Sequence record: PZ379182.1
Length of the DNA: 46,134 nucleotides
Reading direction: 5' to 3' (one strand)
Origin: a phage
The position numbers were made by a program, and so were the translations under genes. The stretch's first letter is position 1, and every line of letters begins with the position of its first letter. The notes under the pieces were generated by a model. That model did no database searches and had not been told where the DNA came from. It saw nothing but the letters and a program-made list of their open reading frames with translations. Below, one piece after another: positions 11,878 to 37,205 of this stretch.

Positions 11878-12528
11878 TTAGAATGTGTCGATTTCTTGAG
11901 ATTGTACTTCAACTTTTTCTTCTTGAACAGACTTTTGTGCAACCTGTTTAGGTTTTGCAGGATTGAAGCCGTTAGTTGCATTAGCCTGAATTTCTGCCTT
12001 ACGCTCAATGATGTGAGGTTCAATCACCAGCCAACCAGCTGAATCAAGAGACTGCTTAGCTTCTTTGTATACATCACGCAGGTCATCAAGAGTGTTGCAC
12101 TTAGCTAAATCTTTCTTAAATGAGTTGATACCCTTAACTGCAAGCTGACCATCATCATCTGCCTGGCTCAAGCCTAATGCCGCTGTAATTGCATAACGGC
12201 GAGCATATGTAAGTGATGAGCCGTAACCTTGAGCATCTTGCTTGCTGATTGGGACGATTGTCAGGAAGCTGACCCACTCTCCAGATTCTGCATGATAGAC
12301 AGTTGTTTCAACCTTAATTCTAGTTGTGGCTTCATCATCAATCATGCCTTGAAACATGACCAGGCCGCTATCTGCAAGGCCAGGCTCTACAGCCGCCAGT
12401 ACGTCTTCCAGGGTGGCGTACCTGTTCTTTAGGTGCGAGTTCTGCTTTGACTTTTCAGCCTTTGCAAACTTTGATTTGGCCTCAAATAAAGCCTTCAATA
12501 CTTGCTTGTTTTGATCTGAAGTTTTCAT
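11878..12528 (-). CDS. erf: ERF-family single-strand annealing recombinase
   Basis: 216 aa; conserved core with GYGSSLTYARRYAITAALGL motif; located with exonuclease and SSB. Confidence 0.7.
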   Translation of the reverse strand: MKTSDQNKQVLKALFEAKSKFAKAEKSKQNSHLKNRYATLEDVLAAVEPGLADSGLVMFQGMIDDEATTRIKVETTVYHAESGEWVSFLTIVPISKQDAQGYGSSLTYARRYAITAALGLSQADDDGQLAVKGINSFKKDLAKCNTLDDLRDVYKEAKQSLDSAGWLVIEPHIIERKAEIQANATNGFNPAKPKQVAQKSVQEEKVEVQSQEIDTF

Positions 12529-12539
12529 TAACTATCTCT

Positions 12540-12606
12540 CTTTCGTTTCAGTGGGGAAATCATACCTCACCTTTTGATTTTGTCTTTAGCAATTAGTGCT
12601 ATTTTA
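12540..12606 (-). promoter_or_regulatory. intergenic cassette copy between exonuclease and ERF genes
   Basis: Minus strand AAATAGCACTAATTGCTAAAG ... CCCCACTGAAACGAAAGAGAG; motif contains the exonuclease stop codon. Confidence 0.6.
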
Positions 12607-13570
12607 GAAGTTCTTGATACTGCTTACTTACCCACTCAGGAATCATCAAATCTTGCTCTGTAATCCCATTGCTATACCCAGGCCATACATCAAGCTCCTT
12701 GCACTGTTTGTATGTTGCTAGTGCCTCACAATATTGTAAACGACCAATGCGAAGCTGTTCATCTGTAAGCGTGTAGCTCATTGGTAAGTAAGGCTCCGTT
12801 TTTTCCTGCGCCAGAAGTCGAGCCACAACCTTACGCTTCTCGTTAAATGTCTTCACGAACAAGTCACGCTGAAGGCTCATTTTGCACAGGTATCCATGGT
12901 CATAAGCTGACTTGCCAAATCCTCTCGGGCTTGCGTCCGCCGTCGTCTTGTAGTCAGTAATGAAAACCACGCCATCAACAACATCCACGTGATCAAGCCT
13001 AACCTTAACACCACACCCAAGAATCTCACCAAAGATTGATAGCTCTTTCTGTGCTGTTGGTGAGTTAATAATCGCATCGTAAGCTGGGATATTAGTCAGA
13101 ACCTCGCGCATTGAGATTACCTTATCGTAATCTTTCGCAGTAACGAGCTCTTTGCCACTAATTAACGCCTCAGCGCTCTCCTGCTGCTCAATTAACCATT
13201 TAACAGGCCAATCCTCACCAGATTTATACATCATCTCCACGAGCTCGCTATATCCCTTACCTGACGTGCCTGAAACTCCAACTTTTTTAAGCGCTGCGGA
13301 TAAAGCCGTTTGGCTAGTAATCAATCCTTCCACTTCGTCAAAGTCAGTAGCTCGCATGTATGTTGAGTCAAATACCTCGCGCTCTAGCATCATGCAGTGA
13401 CTTAGTGTGCCAAATTTAAGTGCTGCGCTAGAGTTGCTGCGCTGCTTAAATTTCCATTTTGCTGGAGAAGTAGCAAGAATCTCAGCCAGCGAAGAGCCAG
13501 AGATATGGTCTTTCTCTTCGTGATAGGCTTCATTGGTTAGCTCGTCGTTCGTATAAACTTTAAATGTCAT
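12599..13570 (-). CDS. recombination exonuclease (PD-(D/E)xK, RecE/YqaJ-like)
   Basis: 323 aa; D...D/E..K-type motif region (VRLDHVDVVDGVVFITDYKT); synteny with ERF and SSB. Confidence 0.6.
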   Translation of the reverse strand: MTFKVYTNDELTNEAYHEEKDHISGSSLAEILATSPAKWKFKQRSNSSAALKFGTLSHCMMLEREVFDSTYMRATDFDEVEGLITSQTALSAALKKVGVSGTSGKGYSELVEMMYKSGEDWPVKWLIEQQESAEALISGKELVTAKDYDKVISMREVLTNIPAYDAIINSPTAQKELSIFGEILGCGVKVRLDHVDVVDGVVFITDYKTTADASPRGFGKSAYDHGYLCKMSLQRDLFVKTFNEKRKVVARLLAQEKTEPYLPMSYTLTDEQLRIGRLQYCEALATYKQCKELDVWPGYSNGITEQDLMIPEWVSKQYQELLK

Positions 13571-13768: not shown

Positions 13769-13900
13769 TTCTCTATCTCTCTATTGTTGTTTGCTTTCGA
13801 TGCGTTAATGATGCCGCACGCAAGACACACAGTCCAATTGGTATCACCGATTAATTAATCAAGTATACGCGTATAAATCCGTAACTATGTGTAGACATTG

Positions 13901-14155
13901 CCATTAGTTACGTTTTTCACCACTTCAGCCCAGCTATAGCTCAATGTAAATAGTGCGTATACCGTGTATACCGATTTTTGCGGAGGGTGCATAGTTATAT
14001 GCGCCACGCAATACTGTATAAAATCACATTATATAAAAATTATAACCGGAACACTCCAGAACAGTAGTTACATGATATACACAGTAATATATATAATAAT
14101 AATAATAAGAGTAAATGGTTGATATATATAGATATTATTATGTAACTATGGCGTA
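13901..14155. repeat. AT-rich regulatory/origin-like module, copy 1 (palindrome, (ATA/TAA)n microsatellite, 30-bp conserved core)
   Basis: GTTACGTTTTTCACC...CAGCCCAGCTATAGCT at 13901-13941, (ATA)n at 14086-14108, core GGTTGATATATATAGATATTATTATGTAAC at 14117-14146; the same blocks recur at 41546-41785. Confidence 0.7.
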
Positions 14156-14309
14156 TCAAAGCGTAACTAGGCGTATACGATTTCCCGCTGATGCATATGG
14201 TATACATAGAGTTACATCGGTTACGCGTAACCAACAGCACGAATAGCTAAAACTAATCCGCAAAACCATGTATAGTTGGTCACACAAAAAAACGAGAGAG
14301 GATTTCAAA

Positions 14310-14999
14310 ATGGTTATCTGGTCTTTATTTGATGGTTCAGGGCTGGCTGTGAAAGATTGGGCCGAAGCTGGTCACGAGTGCTACTGTTTCAACTTTGATG
14401 AGTCTGACCACGGTAGTTACGGGGATTTAAATGCAAAATTTGAACATGAGAACATCACCTACGTTAATGCCTGGATAGATGGCAACTTCGACTTTGATGT
14501 GAAGCCTGATATCATTTTAGCGTTCCCGCCGTGTACGGATTTAGCCGTGAGCGGGTCAAGGCACTTTGAGCGAAAGCGACTGGTTAACCATAACTTCCAG
14601 ATTGAAGCTGCGGAAACATGTAAAGTTGCTTTTAACTTGGCTAATAAGTACGAAGTCCCATACATGATTGAGAATCCAATCAGCGTACTGTCATCACTCT
14701 GGAGAAAGCCTAATAAGACTTTCCACCCATATGAATACGGAGGCTATTTGCCGGAAGATGATTTACACCCGTTTTTTAGCGACCTAATAAAGCCAAAAGA
14801 CGCATATCCCAAGAAGACATGCATTTGGTATGGCAATGGGTTTAAATGGCCAGAGGCGATTCCTGTGGACGTTAACGATGGATTCTCTGACCAATACAAG
14901 AAGCTTGGTGGGAAGAGTAAGAAGACAAAGGTAATTCGCAGTCTAACTCCTCGCGGTTTTGCAAAAGCAGTCTTCATAGCAAATAGCACCAATTGCTAA
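14310..14999 (+). CDS. SAM-dependent DNA methyltransferase, cytosine-C5-like motifs
   Basis: Track ORF 14268..14999; ATG at 14310 with GAGAGGA RBS gives MVIWSLFDGSG (motif I-like), PPC-T-DLAVSG (PC catalytic-motif-like), ENP; short for a typical C5-MTase so specificity is uncertain. Confidence 0.5.
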   Translation: MVIWSLFDGSGLAVKDWAEAGHECYCFNFDESDHGSYGDLNAKFEHENITYVNAWIDGNFDFDVKPDIILAFPPCTDLAVSGSRHFERKRLVNHNFQIEAAETCKVAFNLANKYEVPYMIENPISVLSSLWRKPNKTFHPYEYGGYLPEDDLHPFFSDLIKPKDAYPKKTCIWYGNGFKWPEAIPVDVNDGFSDQYKKLGGKSKKTKVIRSLTPRGFAKAVFIANSTNC

Positions 15000-15060
15000 A
15001 GACAAATCTCAAGGATGAGATATCATTACTCCATTGAAACGAAACACACCTTCTAAGGAA
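14982..15060 (+). promoter_or_regulatory. intergenic cassette copy between methyltransferase and cor-like genes
   Basis: AAATAGCACCAATTGCTAAAG, ATCTCAAGGATGAGAT hairpin, TATCATTACTCCATTGAAACGAAAC. Confidence 0.6.
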
Positions 15061-15067
15061 TACGAAA

Positions 15068-15313
15068 ATGACTAACTTAATCAAACTTTCAATCATCGCA
15101 GCAGCAGCAATCATGATGGTGGGTTGTTCTTCTGCTCCGCGTCCTGACGGATGGTGTGCAACGCAAGCAAACGGCGTGTGCGTGGCTAAATGGGAAAATG
15201 GTGTGGTTGTACCGTCTGGTGAAGTTGATGTGCGATACGCTGGTATTGAGAGCAAGGCTGGCGGCGGTTACGGTGGCTCTGTTGCTGACCATGGGTCTAA
15301 GGAGTGGAAATAA
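15068..15313 (+). CDS. small lipoprotein, Cor-like superinfection-exclusion candidate
   Basis: 81 aa; signal peptide with lipobox MVGCSS; T1/phi80-type phages carry a small lipoprotein cor gene near tail genes. Confidence 0.5.
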
Positions 15314-16275
15314 TGCCTCAAGGAATATTGATTGACCTTAATGATGGAAGGCCACCTATGGAAATAACGGCAGGATTAAGAGCACCCGCTGTGACTGGCT
15401 CAATAAATACCAATGGACTTTCGACGCCAGCATCATCATGGGATTTTGGTTTAACCATGTCCCCAGGCTCAACAGCATTCTGCCTTCCAACAAAGGCTGT
15501 GCACGTTGACGCTTATGATGTTGTACCTGAAGTTTATTATATGAACGGGTTCCAGAAGGTAAATGACGGAACTGGCAGGATAAAACTTAGTAACTTCAAT
15601 GGCGCAAGAGGTCGTATAATTGACTTTGCTGGCAATTGCTTTGAGATACTAGCTGCTTCATCCTCTTCAAGCCCGGGCATACTTGTTGAGAACTCAACTG
15701 ACTTCCTGGCAATTTCAAGTAATTCGCGGTTAATGTCTGCGGCGTGGGTTGGTGGAATCCAAGTTAACGGCGCGGCTTCACTTCCAGTTAGCGGAGTTCC
15801 GTTTGGTAAGTGGGATAACCCAGGAGTTTCTCTGGAGAGCGACGGGAGCACAATTTGGTGCCGAAATATAAACTACACTGGTACAGATGACGTGGCGGCA
15901 AGCACTTACGTGCAACTGGTGATATTCAGAAACGAACCGCCGATAGCTGGACCCGGGCTTACAATGTCTAACAGCTTGGGCCAGATTGTCTTTTCCAGCG
16001 TTAGGCGACCGTTTGTGCTTGGTGGCTTTATACAAATGACTAACGGTTTCCAGTCAATAAATGGTGGATTCTTCCCACTACTTAGGTGTGGAGCTACAAC
16101 AAGGGTTACTGGAGGGTATAACAACTTAAGATACAAAGGCATATGCATGTCTGGCGGCGCCGTAAGGGCCGTTCCAGGGACTGTAATAGGTAACTACTCA
16201 ACGCAGACGGGAGCCCAATTCCCATTCGACACAAACATATCAATGGCTCTACCATTCATACCAAACTTCTACTAA
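15313..16275 (+). CDS. hypothetical Gly/Ser/Thr-rich beta-type protein (possible tail- or receptor-associated)
   Basis: Track ORF 15304..16275 begins at GTG; ATG at 15313 overlaps the cor-like stop and follows AAGGAG; composition resembles fiber proteins. Confidence 0.45.
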   Translation: MPQGILIDLNDGRPPMEITAGLRAPAVTGSINTNGLSTPASSWDFGLTMSPGSTAFCLPTKAVHVDAYDVVPEVYYMNGFQKVNDGTGRIKLSNFNGARGRIIDFAGNCFEILAASSSSSPGILVENSTDFLAISSNSRLMSAAWVGGIQVNGAASLPVSGVPFGKWDNPGVSLESDGSTIWCRNINYTGTDDVAASTYVQLVIFRNEPPIAGPGLTMSNSLGQIVFSSVRRPFVLGGFIQMTNGFQSINGGFFPLLRCGATTRVTGGYNNLRYKGICMSGGAVRAVPGTVIGNYSTQTGAQFPFDTNISMALPFIPNFY

Positions 16276-16300
16276 AAGAAAAGGCCCCGAAAGGGGCCTA
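16276..16300. terminator. bidirectional intrinsic terminator between convergent operons
   Basis: AAAAGAAAAGGCCCCGAAAGGGGCCTAATCATTT. Confidence 0.75.
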
Positions 16301-16305
16301 ATCAT

Positions 16306-19300
16306 TTACCACACTCCAACTACAACCCTTCCACCATTCGGTAAATTAACTGTAATTCCATTATTGTTAATCTGAACAGTGTTGTTGGTTCCGTTAAACG
16401 CAAAGTTGCCGTTACTTGCGTACAGACTACCCCTTACAGTTGCATTGTTAAGTTCCGCACTGCCTGACTTATCAATGGCCCAACCCTGAGAACCAGCCAC
16501 GTAGTTATTAGATTGAATCCGGTTACCAATCTTCGCGTTAGTGATTGAACCATCCTGAATCACTGCGCTTTGAATGAATACCTGATTACCTTCAACTACG
16601 AAAGGCAATGACCACTGACCGGATCCAGAGCTAATGCCGTTACTGATTGCGAACCTGTTAGCATCGAAAATGAACTGACTACGAACGTTGCCACCAGATC
16701 CGGTTAGTTCCATGCTCATCCCTGAATTGTACTCAACCCCATTGTAAGTAAGACCCAGCTTAATGCCGTACTGCGCACCAATTGAATCAGCTGTAACGTA
16801 AGTATCCAGCTTCTCATTTAAAGCAGCTTCATTCTCACCGAGCCTTGCAGATAAAGCAGTGTCCGCAGTGGTCCTTGCTTGCGTTTCTTCCGCTAGCGCC
16901 GTATCAATCCTTGTCAACGAAGCCACAATCTCATCATCAATCTGCGCTTTAAGCTGCGTCAGAGCCTCTACGCGAGCCCTTTCTTCATCGGCGATAAGAT
17001 TCACAGCCTGAACAAATTCGGCCTTCCTCTTGCCGTTTTCCTTCGTCATTCTACGCACGTCACCATCATTAGCCAGGGCGTTCTCAATTATTGATTCCGC
17101 TTGCGCCTGAATAGCTCCGTTTGACTCAATGGCATTCTGTTGGAGATACTTGAACCCATCTGAGTTTTCTATATCAACCTTAATATCACCAATGATTGAC
17201 GACACATCATCGCTTGCCATACCCCTTACAAAATCAGTCCATGGTGAGACGTTACCAATCTTGTCAATCAGTCGCGCCCTGTACCAGATAACCTTTCCTG
17301 CCGGTAATGTAGTGTGCCAATACTCGTAACCCGGGTAAGGAACTAGCGTTAACAAACTGGCGTTCTCTGGTGAGTAAGTACCATCACCATTGTCGGCTAC
17401 TTGCTGCAATTCAGTGTATGACGTATCGGCTGAGTTTTCAGGGAAACCCCACTTAACCCTAATGCCAAATATTTCATCATCTGAAGCTGTGATTACCGTA
17501 GGCTCAGACGGCGTTCCAATTTTACCAGTTAGGCTTACTGAAACAATGTCAGACCATGCGGATACGTTTTCAGTATCAGAAACGGCCCTTACGCGAACCT
17601 GGTAAATTCCGGCATAGATACCTTCAATATCAACCTCTGTGCTTGCTGTGCGCGGCACGTTAATCCAGTTTCCGTTCTCCTTGCGCCACTGGACCGTGTA
17701 GGTTTTCGCGTACTGAACCTTGTCCCACGTGATTACCATTGTCTCAACTGATAAACCCTGAACAACCTTACTGTAACTGCTAACCTGAACATTCTCGGGT
17801 GCCAGTAATGTATCTGGCTCCACGATTGAAGTTGGCCTATCCTGAATGTTTACGCCGTAATCAATTTCGTCGTATTTATTCGGGTCGTACTCGACTGCCG
17901 TAATGCTGTAACCGAACGCATCGTCTCCATCGCTGTCTGCTTTTTGAATCCCGGTCACAACATATTGCTGAAGAGCAAGATTTTCCTTATCAATCGCAAA
18001 TACTGTGTCAGGCTGAGGAGTAAAGCTAAACGCTGTATTAAGTTGCAGCGTCATACCATCTTCAGATACAGATGCAATGGTCCTGTACTCTGGCATTCCA
18101 TCAGGCTTGTTTATTAGAATCCTGTCGCCAGCAGTAGCATCAATCTTAAATGGCACAAAAACTTGCAACCCACTTACTGACTCGATACGACCAGAAAGGT
18201 TAAGGGTGTAGTTGCTAGACCATGCCTGGTCATTAACTGCAATAACCTCACCAATCATTGGAATCATACCTTCCAGACCAGTAGTGAAACTAATAGTCTC
18301 GCTGCGAATGTTCGTCTTTAATAACCAGCGCCCTCGGCGGTTTGCCTCACTCCTGCGAGTACATCCAATAGCTGTAAGGTCGACCGGGTTGTAACCAAAA
18401 CGCCTTGTTGCCTCTAACTCGAATACTGGCTCAACATCCTGTTGGTATGAGTTTTCAACGTCATCAAACTGAACGTTGGCAACCGTGTAAAGTGACTTAT
18501 CGCTACCAAATGTACGGTTGAACAATCCATCAACAACGTTGTCATTGGTGAATACGTACGATGGTTGACGCGGCTTATCGACAACAATCCCTATCTGCTC
18601 GCCGTCATAGAATGTCAGCCCACGGAAGATAGAGCAAATATCACGGATTACCTGATATGCTTCAACTTTCTGCTGAATGACAACATCACACAGGTAGCGC
18701 GGCTCAACTCCACCCTTACCATCTGGAACCATCTGGTCACAGAATTGCGCCGCCTCATACAGACCCCACTTATCAATAGTAATGCCAAGCTCTCGCTGGT
18801 CAAGTCCGTAACGCTGATTCGTCACCAAGTCGTAAAGAACCCACGCCGGGTTATTGGAATACGCCATCTTAAAGGTGCCGTTCCAGGTTCCGCTGTAAGT
18901 CCTTGTCTCTGGGTTGTAGTTAGTTGGAACGCGAATCAACTTCCACTTCTTCTTGATTGAAATCGTCGGGATTCCGTTAGGGAAGAGGTCAGAACTGAAC
19001 TCAACGTAAACCAGCGCTGTAAGTGGGTAGCGGAATTTAGCATCAATTACTTCCTGATAGGTCGTAATTTGCATGTCGTTAACCAGCGTCGAACTTTCTG
19101 AATATGCCGTGATCTTACGAACCCTCACCAACGCACTCGAGAACTCAGCAGGAAGGTTAACCCTGATACTTCTGTCGTACCCGCTAGTTGTCTTGCCATT
19201 AGCTACTCCGCGCGTGTACTCAGTGTATGTAGCGCCATCAACGGACAGGTCAATCGCATACTCGCAAGTGGTACCGTTAAGATCTCCGTTACTTTCCTGA

Positions 19301-19731
19301 TTAATCAGACGAGGCCAAAACAGCTTAACCCTAATCGCTGATAGCTGGGTGTTATTAACAGCAATGATGTAAGGAGTTGAGTTTTTAATCTCCCTGTTCA
19401 CTTGCACTTCCGAGTTAGCACCCTCTAGCCCGGCAATGTAATCCTGACTCTGTGTGCCAGGGCGAAACTCTGCCGTTACACCCTCGTAGTTGTATGTGCC
19501 ATTCTGGTTCTGTACAGGAACGTCAGCAAGGTAAAGGTCCTTTAGGGAGAATGAGCTATCAACCTCACCATCAGAAACAGCTAGCAAAACCTTAACCTTG
19601 TTTACGGATATCAGGTTATCAGGCTGCTCTACAGGTTGGTGCTGCTTTGGCTGTCCGCCCTTACTTCCATAAATCTTAATTTCTTCCGCCATATCACATA
19701 GCTCCGCATTTGTTTTGACCATTTGTGCCAT
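16306..19731 (-). CDS. central tail fiber / host specificity protein, lambda J-like
   Basis: 1141 aa; segment YSGTWNGTFKMAYSNNPAWVLYDLVTNQRYGL closely parallels lambda J; last gene of an M-L-K-I-J-like series. Confidence 0.9.
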   Translation of the reverse strand: MAQMVKTNAELCDMAEEIKIYGSKGGQPKQHQPVEQPDNLISVNKVKVLLAVSDGEVDSSFSLKDLYLADVPVQNQNGTYNYEGVTAEFRPGTQSQDYIAGLEGANSEVQVNREIKNSTPYIIAVNNTQLSAIRVKLFWPRLINQESNGDLNGTTCEYAIDLSVDGATYTEYTRGVANGKTTSGYDRSIRVNLPAEFSSALVRVRKITAYSESSTLVNDMQITTYQEVIDAKFRYPLTALVYVEFSSDLFPNGIPTISIKKKWKLIRVPTNYNPETRTYSGTWNGTFKMAYSNNPAWVLYDLVTNQRYGLDQRELGITIDKWGLYEAAQFCDQMVPDGKGGVEPRYLCDVVIQQKVEAYQVIRDICSIFRGLTFYDGEQIGIVVDKPRQPSYVFTNDNVVDGLFNRTFGSDKSLYTVANVQFDDVENSYQQDVEPVFELEATRRFGYNPVDLTAIGCTRRSEANRRGRWLLKTNIRSETISFTTGLEGMIPMIGEVIAVNDQAWSSNYTLNLSGRIESVSGLQVFVPFKIDATAGDRILINKPDGMPEYRTIASVSEDGMTLQLNTAFSFTPQPDTVFAIDKENLALQQYVVTGIQKADSDGDDAFGYSITAVEYDPNKYDEIDYGVNIQDRPTSIVEPDTLLAPENVQVSSYSKVVQGLSVETMVITWDKVQYAKTYTVQWRKENGNWINVPRTASTEVDIEGIYAGIYQVRVRAVSDTENVSAWSDIVSVSLTGKIGTPSEPTVITASDDEIFGIRVKWGFPENSADTSYTELQQVADNGDGTYSPENASLLTLVPYPGYEYWHTTLPAGKVIWYRARLIDKIGNVSPWTDFVRGMASDDVSSIIGDIKVDIENSDGFKYLQQNAIESNGAIQAQAESIIENALANDGDVRRMTKENGKRKAEFVQAVNLIADEERARVEALTQLKAQIDDEIVASLTRIDTALAEETQARTTADTALSARLGENEAALNEKLDTYVTADSIGAQYGIKLGLTYNGVEYNSGMSMELTGSGGNVRSQFIFDANRFAISNGISSGSGQWSLPFVVEGNQVFIQSAVIQDGSITNAKIGNRIQSNNYVAGSQGWAIDKSGSAELNNATVRGSLYASNGNFAFNGTNNTVQINNNGITVNLPNGGRVVVGVW

Positions 19732-37129: not shown

Positions 37130-37205
37130 TGGTGTTCCGCACTGGACTCGAACCAGTAACTAAGACTTAGGAGGTCTTTGCGTTATCCTGTTACGCCAGC
37201 AGAAC
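37130..37205 (-). tRNA. tRNA-Arg (anticodon CCU, reads AGG)
   Basis: 76 nt folded by eye: acceptor GTTCTGC/GCGGAAC (one G-U), D-arm GCGT/ACGC, anticodon stem AAGAC/GTCTT with loop CUCCUAA, T-arm ACTGG-TTCGAGT-CCAGT, encoded CCA. Confidence 0.8.

Follow-up and report, generated by a model that had tools for sequence, protein, structure and literature searches.

The region at 14268-16275 of the window (the whole 46,134-nucleotide stretch of phage DNA analysed here, sequence record PZ379182.1) is best read, with a probability of about 0.88, as two adjacent and independent units: a locus of LptD type, in which a gene for a putative superinfection-exclusion (SE) lipoprotein precedes the gene of a receptor-binding protein (RBP), and a separately promoted methyltransferase gene that appears to be cargo. 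Homology, motifs, gene order, translational coupling and modularity of the cassette, on which this reading builds, were observed directly. An earlier note on the same DNA had described three rightward open reading frames (ORFs) that converge on a J-type gene, which the ORF positions confirm, and had suggested that the three genes might be one host-interaction module, a view not upheld here: the methyltransferase is an exchangeable item, absent or replaced in close relatives that have the same lipoprotein-RBP pair. The window represents the genome of a T1-like siphophage in the Drexlerviridae, near the Braunvirinae, and the records nearest to it are those of Escherichia phages ES, AN_ECEAS and IMM-001 (85-91% nucleotide identity, partial coverage). 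The features of the region are as follows.

14235..14276, plus strand: promoter-like element upstream of the methyltransferase; box CAGCACGAATAGCTAAA at 14235-14251, 19-nucleotide (nt) spacer, -10-like TATAGT at 14271-14276
14268..14999, plus strand: ORF1, methyltransferase, longest reading from the ORF list, 243 amino acids (aa)
14310..14999, plus strand: ORF1 from its preferred start, mini Dcm-like C5-cytosine DNA methyltransferase, 229 aa
14984..15026, plus strand: promoter-like element of the lipoprotein-RBP pair; box TAGCACCAATTGCTAAA at 14984-15000, 20-nt spacer, -10-like TATCAT at 15021-15026
15068..15313, plus strand: ORF2, Rtp45-type SE lipoprotein (exclusion predicted), 81 aa
15313..16275 (ORF also listed from 15304), plus strand: ORF3, RBP of the DUF6453, Rtp44/RBP_Oeko family, predicted to target LptD, 320 aa
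16282..16299, strand unassigned: G+C-rich hairpin AGGCCCCGAAAGGGGCCT in the gap where the RBP and J genes converge
16306..19731, minus strand: J-like central tail-fibre or tail-tip gene, 1141 aa (context gene)

ORF3 is assigned to the DUF6453/Rtp44/RBP_Oeko family as an RBP, with LptD as the receptor predicted from its relatives. It matches Pfam PF20051 (DUF6453) with 452.9 bits (gathering score 25; E 6e-136), residues 7-300 aligning to positions 1-291 of 291, that is, to the whole profile. It also aligns end to end with PDB chain 9rpt_C (E 8.1e-63; query 2-320 against 2-321 of the chain, 42% identity over 316 aligned positions), which is the RBP of phage Oekolampad (Bas18) in a structure solved in complex with LptDE (Dunbar 2025, PMC12685063). 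In this alignment Gln299 of RBP_Oeko, which contacts loop EL4 of LptD, is matched by Gln in ORF3. By tblastn, at 100% coverage throughout, ORF3 is 96.6% identical to its counterpart in phage ES and 92.5% identical to OzMSK_038, and the identities to the RBPs of JeanPiccard (Bas02), AugustePiccard (Bas01) and ChristophMerian are 41.1%, 39.9% and 38.6%, respectively. A screen of 255 phages has tied the DUF6453-type RBP family, delimited by >30% identity at >99% coverage, specifically to LptD (bioRxiv 10.64898/2026.04.02.716166), and ORF3 lies above both thresholds when compared with RBPs of phages for which LptD dependence is experimental. Among these relatives, OzMSK does not plate on two mutants with deletions in lptD loops or on a strain engineered to lack loop 11 (PMC13035648), and the resistance of host mutants to Bas01 and Bas02 was traced to lptD (Maffei 2021, PMC8594841). 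The fold in the relatives of ORF3 consists of two lectin-like beta-sandwiches (PMC13035648). The earlier note had described ORF3 correctly as a Gly/Ser/Thr-rich protein of 320 aa (28.8% Gly+Ser+Thr, counted from the ATG at 15313) and had thought receptor binding possible, which the homology to 9rpt_C and PF20051 turns into an assignment; its description of the protein as one of no known role is superseded by the full-length homology to an RBP solved with LptDE. The family carries the PHROGs label "membrane protein / moron", which is out of date for an RBP family, and an NCBIfam search found no family for ORF3.

ORF2 is an Rtp45-type (PF24052) lipoprotein, and superinfection exclusion is predicted for it from what its relatives do. 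The match to PF24052 scores 136.6 bits (gathering score 27; E 2.8e-40), and the match to PDB chain 9rps_D, which is Rtp45 of phage Rtp, has an E of 7.7e-38 at 87% identity. Residues 1-22, including the signal peptide and lipobox (MVGC, Cys20), are identical to those of Rtp45, and Cys30 and Cys38, which form a disulfide in Rtp45 (PMC12685063), are invariant in all six aligned alleles of the family. In the cryo-electron microscopy structure with LptDE(M), Rtp45 binds closed LptDE at its periplasmic face, between LptE and LptM, and forms a beta-sheet with LptD residues 318-323 while its hairpin rises in the lumen; loop EL4 of LptD is shifted by up to 20 Å, with which RBP binding is incompatible (Dunbar, PMC12685063). 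Near its C-terminus ORF2 has a 5-residue insertion (SKAGG region) that is lacking in the Rtp45 and JeanPiccard alleles and is common to OzMSK, ACG-M12 and IMM-001, phages with the same RBP subtype, whose lipoprotein alleles are 85-96% identical to ORF2.

The earlier note was right that ORF2 is a candidate SE lipoprotein, but its comparison with Cor had to be given up. Membership of the Cor family was rejected, as the match to phrog_1119 ('Cor superinfection exclusion protein', E 0.0071) is confined to the signal peptide and lipobox (residues 6-34), and neither the Pfam nor the NCBIfam search returned a Cor match for ORF2. It is highly improbable that the lipoprotein is nevertheless of Cor/Llp type, blocking FhuA allosterically from the periplasm in a phage that uses FhuA as T1, phi80 and T5 do. 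The small lipoprotein gene does adjoin the J gene, as cor does in T1, and the counterpart of ORF2 is annotated as Cor in the related genome vB_Ec-G8, in line with the weak PHROG match, but these points are outweighed by the PF24052 match and by the 87% identity to a protein that was solved bound to LptDE. Moreover, the pairing of Cor with a locus of FhuA specificity is not found here, the adjoining RBP being of an LptD-specific and not an FhuA-specific family. By homology to Rtp45, the predicted target of the lipoprotein is LptDE instead of FhuA.

The gene order of the pair agrees with this assignment to LptD-type loci, since an RBP gene adjacent to gpJ and accompanied by a small lipoprotein gene is the arrangement present both here and in the loci of related phages. 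The stop codon of ORF2 (TAA, 15311-15313) overlaps the ATG of ORF3 at 15313 (TAATG, 15311-15315), with a TAAGGAG ribosome-binding site upstream, and ORF2 and ORF3 are therefore translationally coupled. ORF1 is not coupled to ORF2, from which it is separated by a 68-nt gap that holds a promoter-like element; thus the earlier proposal that all three genes are coupled holds for the second and third genes and fails for the first. At the other end, 30 nt separate the end of the RBP gene from the stop of the convergent J-like gene, whose counterpart is annotated as a J-like tail tip protein in JeanPiccard and OzMSK; the J-like tail tip is the presumed attachment point of the RBP (attachment model, PMC8594841). 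The hairpin at 16282-16299 has 7 pairs (6 of them G-C), a loop of 4 and a T-run tail TTTCTTTT on the J (minus) strand side only, and the scan flagged it as terminator-like for the J strand alone.

The two proteins of the pair are unevenly conserved. Across the alleles compared, including those of JeanPiccard and Rtp45, the lipoproteins are 72-96% identical, whereas the RBPs that partner the JeanPiccard and Rtp45 lipoproteins are only about 40% identical to ORF3, and the RBPs of OzMSK and Rtp have 39% identity to each other (PMC13035648). This pattern fits a single conserved periplasmic docking site that would serve divergent RBPs. DNA homology to JeanPiccard spans the methyltransferase and lipoprotein genes and ends ~60 nt into the RBP gene, which suggests a recombination junction just past the conserved N-terminal segment for tail attachment.

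ORF1 is a short C5-cytosine DNA methyltransferase, dependent on S-adenosylmethionine and almost devoid of a target-recognition domain, for which formation of 5-methylcytosine (5mC) is predicted from its relatives. The start in the earlier note, 14268, probably lies 42 nt upstream of the true one: no ribosome-binding site precedes this ATG, which adjoins the predicted -10 box at 14271-14276, and the best start is the ATG at 14310, which is preceded by GAGAGAGGA and yields a protein of 229 aa, the length annotated in JeanPiccard and seen throughout the family. The identification as a short C5-like methyltransferase, made in the earlier note, is sustained by a match to phrog_757 (E 1.1e-85) and by the motifs F7-D-G-S-G11 (motif I), P73-P-C75 (motif IV) and E121-N-P123 (motif VI), followed by K168-K169. 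FDGSG, PPC and ENP are invariant (F7/G9/G11, P74/C75, E121/N122/P123) across 26 family members, and KKTC and LGGKS..IRSLTPRGF are invariant or nearly so in the family alignment. More than 1895 homologues were found, with lengths of ~215-250 aa among the matches listed, and 1537 phage records contain a match to the family. Only about 25-30 residues lie between KKTC (168-171) and LGGKS (~199-203), where a target-recognition domain would sit, and given the lengths of the listed homologues this short interval is the norm of the family and not a truncation.

Similarity to general databases was weaker. Pfam PF00145 was matched by residues 17-104 of the 243-aa ORF (profile 3-87 of 324) with 16 bits, under the gathering score of 22; PADLOC gave a marginal match to a Type II methyltransferase (E 0.0017), and no family for ORF1 was found in the NCBIfam search. 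Because PDB sequence searches with ORF1 alone and with a 26-sequence profile returned nothing meaningful, the predicted fold was searched instead. The AlphaFold2 model of ORF1 (mean predicted local distance difference test score, pLDDT, 86.7; predicted template modelling score, pTM, 0.87) had DNMT3A/3B, DNMT1 or DIM2 as all of its top 33 Foldseek matches in the PDB (best E 1.6e-5, template modelling score, TM, ~0.5).

Among the relatives of ORF1, the 'Dcm-like C5 cytosine methyltransferase' of JeanPiccard is 91% identical and the Dcm of KarlJaspers (Bas06) 58% identical, with C82/E128/K175/K176 of the latter conserved as C75/E121/K168/K169. Phage K42 is 95% identical to Bas06, and its 711-bp dcm gene was the site of all mutations by which retron Ec86 was escaped; expression of K42 Dcm raised 5mC in the multicopy single-stranded DNA (msDNA) of the retron, activity was lost in a C82A/E128A/K175A/K176A mutant, and the CC of CCTGG was required for defence by the retron (bioRxiv 10.1101/2023.08.16.553469). 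By analogy, an anti-restriction role may be supposed for ORF1.

An alternative is that the 229-aa protein is not a sequence-specific protective methyltransferase, but an enzyme of relaxed specificity or active on single strands, whose role might lie outside anti-restriction (in the marking of replicating DNA, for example, or in disturbance of host processes), or else one that is catalytically weak. The short interval between KKTC and LGGKS...RSLTPRGF and the failure to reach the PF00145 gathering score favour it, as does the absence of a correlation between methyltransferase genes and restriction resistance (PMC8594841). The sole documented substrate of a homologue, moreover, is a stem-loop in retron msDNA, and from the fact that Dcm of MG1655 targets CCWGG and yet evidently does not trigger the retron we infer a hint at some other specificity or level of activity. 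This alternative is nonetheless considered unlikely. Across a family that counts more than 1895 proteins from many phage types, the catalytic motifs do not vary, which argues for a selected enzymatic function, and K42 Dcm forms 5mC that is lost in the catalytic mutant. Nor is CCWGG avoided in the window, where it is slightly enriched (80 observed against 61 ± 8 expected).

The separation of ORF1 from the lipoprotein-RBP pair is indicated by the sequences that flank it. In an alignment with ES, IMM-001 and JeanPiccard, the methyltransferase was found to be bounded by two copies of a ~17-20 nt box AGCACGAATWGCTAAA. The methyltransferase and the pair are probably separately promoted, because each has a promoter-like box of its own. 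The upstream element (14235..14276) is the most degenerate copy of the box family, and a box is present at the syntenic site upstream of the cargo in JeanPiccard, IMM-001, OzMSK and ACG-M12 as well. The box of the downstream element (14984-15000) includes the methyltransferase stop codon (14997-14999); a conserved leader TACTCCATTGAAACGAAA follows its TATCAT at 15021-15026, the promoter scan predicted AAGACA-16-TATCAT at this element, and in 16 of 21 loci the element lies 313-329 nt upstream of the RBP start. In the window as a whole there are 12 copies of the box, compared with 0.04 expected in shuffles, conforming to the pattern aAATAGCAC(G/T)AATTGCTAAA with the partial dyad TAGCA-N5-TGCTA. 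The first bases of the copies, from the pattern scan, are:

1308 (minus), 3646 (plus, weak), 4739 (minus), 7741 (plus), 8798 (minus), 12601 (minus)
14235 (plus), 14984 (plus), 34383 (minus), 40306 (minus), 43198 (plus), 43978 (plus)

Each copy is oriented with the gene downstream of it and has a TATNAT hexamer about 20 nt further on, after which most copies have a conserved leader (ACTCCATCGAAACGAAA; tACTCCATCGAAACGAAA), a ribosome-binding site and an ATG. A scan of IMG/VR for the exact pattern found at least 120 stretches that contain it, most of them on contigs of 45-53 kb. If TATNAT is the -10 hexamer, the centre of the 17-nt box would fall near -41/-42, a position appropriate to a promoter that depends on an activator. 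Two other readings of the box were discarded. The reading as an RNA hairpin (5-bp stem, 5-nt loop) was set aside because a common T-to-A variant (AATAGCT) disrupts one base pair with no compensating change and because the -10 stands at a fixed distance of 20 nt, and TTGCTA was rejected as a -35 hexamer, as its spacing to the -10 would be 23 nt.

The space between the two boxes was surveyed in 21 loci carrying the DUF6453 RBP family. Of these, 8 had nothing in this slot, 3 carried a C5 methyltransferase there, 2 an N6/N4 methyltransferase and another 2 an anti-repressor-like gene, while a single locus had a small ORF; in the remaining 5, which are more distant, the box was absent altogether. 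Its contents are:

C5 methyltransferase: the window, JeanPiccard, L014
PF01555 N6/N4 methyltransferase: IMM-001 (DLPY-type, between perfect box copies), OzMSK
Anti-repressor-like gene: L009, L012
101-aa ORF: ACG-M12
Empty: ES (one box copy, no methyltransferase), Rtp, 6 others

Recombination between the boxes would therefore allow gain, loss and swapping of cargo, as the pattern of contents implies. The alternative, that the three genes form one co-regulated host-interaction operon in which genome protection is tied to the choice of receptor, would account for their adjacency and common orientation and for the recurrence of the three-gene order in JeanPiccard and in one IMG/VR contig; the scan found no terminator after the methyltransferase, and read-through from an upstream promoter is possible. 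It is considered quite improbable, as the contents of the slot vary while the lipoprotein-RBP pair stays, a copy of the promoter box stands on either side of the cargo, megablast homology to phages of the ACG-M12 and OzMSK types starts exactly at the downstream box (window 14981), and the KarlJaspers homologue of ORF1, at ~40 kb in its genome, is remote from any RBP locus.

Several considerations weigh against the reading as two units with the functions assigned above, or temper it. LptD binding, exclusion, 5mC activity, site specificity and a benefit against restriction are all argued by analogy with relatives, and the promoter assignments are sequence patterns only. The RBP is 40-42% identical to those members of its family that are best characterised structurally or genetically, and the loops in contact with LptD are the least conserved part of the RBP family (PMC13035648). 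Bas01 needs NupG too, via its GpJ (bioRxiv 10.64898/2026.04.02.716166), and a second receptor is therefore possible for the window phage. The only documentation of in vivo exclusion by Rtp45 is a 2006 paper, cited here through Dunbar et al., and the 5-residue insertion of ORF2 has no Rtp45 counterpart. For ORF1, the match to PF00145 is below the gathering score (16 against 22), the PDB searches by sequence were negative as described and the fold matches are moderate (TM ~0.5). The segment between K169 and LGGKS is GFSDQY in ORF1 and DNPGW in the K42 type, so that the specificity of ORF1 may differ from that of the K42 type, for which CCWGG was itself assumed and not mapped (bioRxiv 10.1101/2023.08.16.553469). 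In the Drexlerviridae of the BASEL collection, methyltransferase genes had no simple link to restriction resistance (Maffei et al., PMC8594841).

With these qualifications, the preferred reading as two independent units leads to the following model. Unit A (14984-16299) would correspond to the "RBP locus" of LptD type that small T1-like siphophages carry. Its 320-aa protein would be the terminal RBP, attached distally to the J-like tail tip by its conserved N-terminus, and its binding would commit the phage to irreversible adsorption. The 81-aa lipoprotein, expressed from the same transcript as the RBP and coupled to it, would be exported and lipidated at Cys20, and would then bind LptD from the periplasm between LptE and LptM, its hairpin reaching up the barrel lumen and displacing EL4. 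This type of RBP could then no longer be bound by the LptD of infected cells and lysis debris, the outcome being superinfection exclusion and protection of the progeny. Unit B (14235-14999) would be a separately promoted cargo gene, the 229-aa C5 methyltransferase of which most likely methylates phage DNA to give 5mC, perhaps at CCWGG, the site reported for the K42 homologue. Such 5mC would blunt restriction in hosts that do not have the matching methylation, and the cost, to judge from homologues of the methyltransferase, would be triggering of retron Ec86.

The closest known systems to the lipoprotein-RBP pair are Rtp44/Rtp45 of phage Rtp and the LptD-type 'bona fide RBP locus' of Bas01, Bas02 and Bas18 (Maffei 2021, PMC8594841; Dunbar 2025, PMC12685063, PDB 9rpt/9rpw/9rqi and 9rps), which have the same order of lipoprotein and RBP genes, convergent with gpJ, and the same families, PF24052 and PF20051. 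ORF2 shares with Rtp45 its overall sequence (87% identity), an identical signal peptide and the Cys30/Cys38 pair, and ORF3 shares with RBP_Oeko an end-to-end alignment (42%) and the conserved N-terminal segment. The locus of the window differs from these in that ORF3 is 39-42% identical to the Rtp44, Bas01, Bas02 and Bas18 alleles and belongs to an OzMSK/ACG-M12/Rogue1-type subgroup, in the 5-residue insertion of ORF2, and in the upstream methyltransferase cassette, which Rtp does not have. OzMSK_038/039 of vB_ecoS_OzMSK (Black et al. 2025, PMC13035648) are nearer still (RBP 92.5%, lipoprotein 85% identical, both lipoproteins 81 aa), with the same layout, a promoter box on either side of a methyltransferase cargo, and an LptD dependence that was demonstrated genetically. 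The cargo of OzMSK is a PF01555 (N6/N4-type) methyltransferase, unlike the C5-type enzyme of the window, and beyond the locus the two phages have ~78% identity over ~64% of the 24.7-kb stretch compared (window 16300-41000).

In pb5/Llp of T5 and in T1 and phi80 with Cor, an RBP gene likewise adjoins the gene of a small periplasmic lipoprotein that makes the receptor unbindable, but the families are unrelated and the receptor is the TonB-dependent transporter FhuA. The mechanisms differ too, Llp acting by long-range reverse allostery and Rtp45 by physical displacement of EL4 inside the LptD barrel. ORF1 resembles the Dcm of K42 and KarlJaspers (Bas06) in sequence (58% identity; 229 aa against 236 aa), in retention of the four probed residues and in a predicted DNMT3A-like fold; the KarlJaspers gene is located in an early region at ~40 kb, and its segment before LGGKS differs, as a result of which the specificity may differ. 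With M.HhaI and the Dcm of E. coli (PF00145), ORF1 has in common motifs I, IV (the catalytic Pro-Cys) and VI and a Rossmann-type catalytic fold; it is ~100-250 residues shorter than these, contains no recognisable target-recognition domain and, unlike canonical PF00145 proteins, falls below the gathering threshold and has no PDB match by sequence.

Most of these findings are already known and ordinary, because homologues of each of the three genes have been studied before, and for two of the genes a homologue has a solved structure. The module of LptD-type RBP and exclusion lipoprotein in T1-like phages has been the subject of genetics published in 2021 (PMC8594841), 2025 (PMC13035648) and 2026 (bioRxiv 10.64898/2026.04.02.716166) and of structures published in 2025 (PMC12685063), and the mini Dcm family of one functional study (bioRxiv 10.1101/2023.08.16.553469). 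Only the cargo slot with its flanking promoter-like elements is mildly new here, and it might be undescribed; no discussion of it was met in the literature searched, in a search that was itself incomplete. The slot may explain the movement of anti-restriction genes among Drexlerviridae.

A more ambitious proposal, put forward tentatively and with more doubt than conviction, is that the methyltransferase lies in a hot-spot of recombination marked out by promoter cassettes that the Drexlerviridae conserve, that these cassettes combine an activator-dependent regulon with portable homology arms by which anti-defence cargo is shuffled, and that the methyltransferase of the window lacks a target-recognition domain and has a specificity that is not that of Dcm. 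PeSL cassettes in T4-type phages shuffle cargo in a comparable way.

The main value of the analysis lies in annotation: with good confidence from homology, the essential LptDE translocon is predicted to be the terminal receptor of the phage, and exclusion of other LptD-dependent phages is predicted as well. Public records (ES, IMM-001 and other relatives) often annotate the module wrongly or in uninformative terms: the RBP appears as 'membrane protein' or 'hypothetical protein' and the lipoprotein as 'Cor superinfection exclusion protein', while the label 'carbohydrate ABC transporter permease' sits on a spurious antisense ORF in related records. The labels "membrane protein", "hypothetical protein", "Cor" and "carbohydrate ABC transporter permease" all need correcting. 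The record of phage ES also has its Erf-like gene labelled 'head morphogenesis protein' and its exonuclease gene 'capsid maturation protease'.

Other sites were counted in the window along with CCWGG. GATC is about four-fold depleted (42 observed against 172 ± 12 expected), GGCC and CCGG are mildly depleted, and GCGC is enriched (184 against 108 expected). No ORF of at least 100 aa in the window contains a (D/N/S)PP(Y/F/W) or DLPY motif, that is, no DPPY-type methyltransferase was found, and the phage therefore seems to be without the N6-adenine methyltransferase carried by JeanPiccard, IMM-001 and KarlJaspers. The region at 12529-12598, between an Erf-like gene (11878-12528, minus strand) and an exonuclease VIII-like gene (12599-13570, minus strand), contains only a promoter box (first base 12601, minus strand). 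At the same junction JeanPiccard and IMM-001 have an N6-adenine methyltransferase, with or without a small ORF, and a second slot for cargo of this kind may exist there.

The only Rfam match at the gathering threshold in the window is a tRNA gene, and no RNA family was found at that threshold in the three-gene region:

37133-37205, minus strand: tRNA gene (Rfam RF00005, 58.9 bits)

Upstream of the methyltransferase cassette, in a 540-nt AT-rich region between divergent gene blocks, 5 of the 15 copies of GTAACTA/TAGTTAC in the window are found within ~290 nt (13881-14169), together with further short direct and inverted repeats (GCGTATA.., GGTTACGCGTAACC). The sequence at ~14060-14150 is nearly invariant across four phages, and the region at 13881-14169 could be a regulatory or divergent-promoter region.

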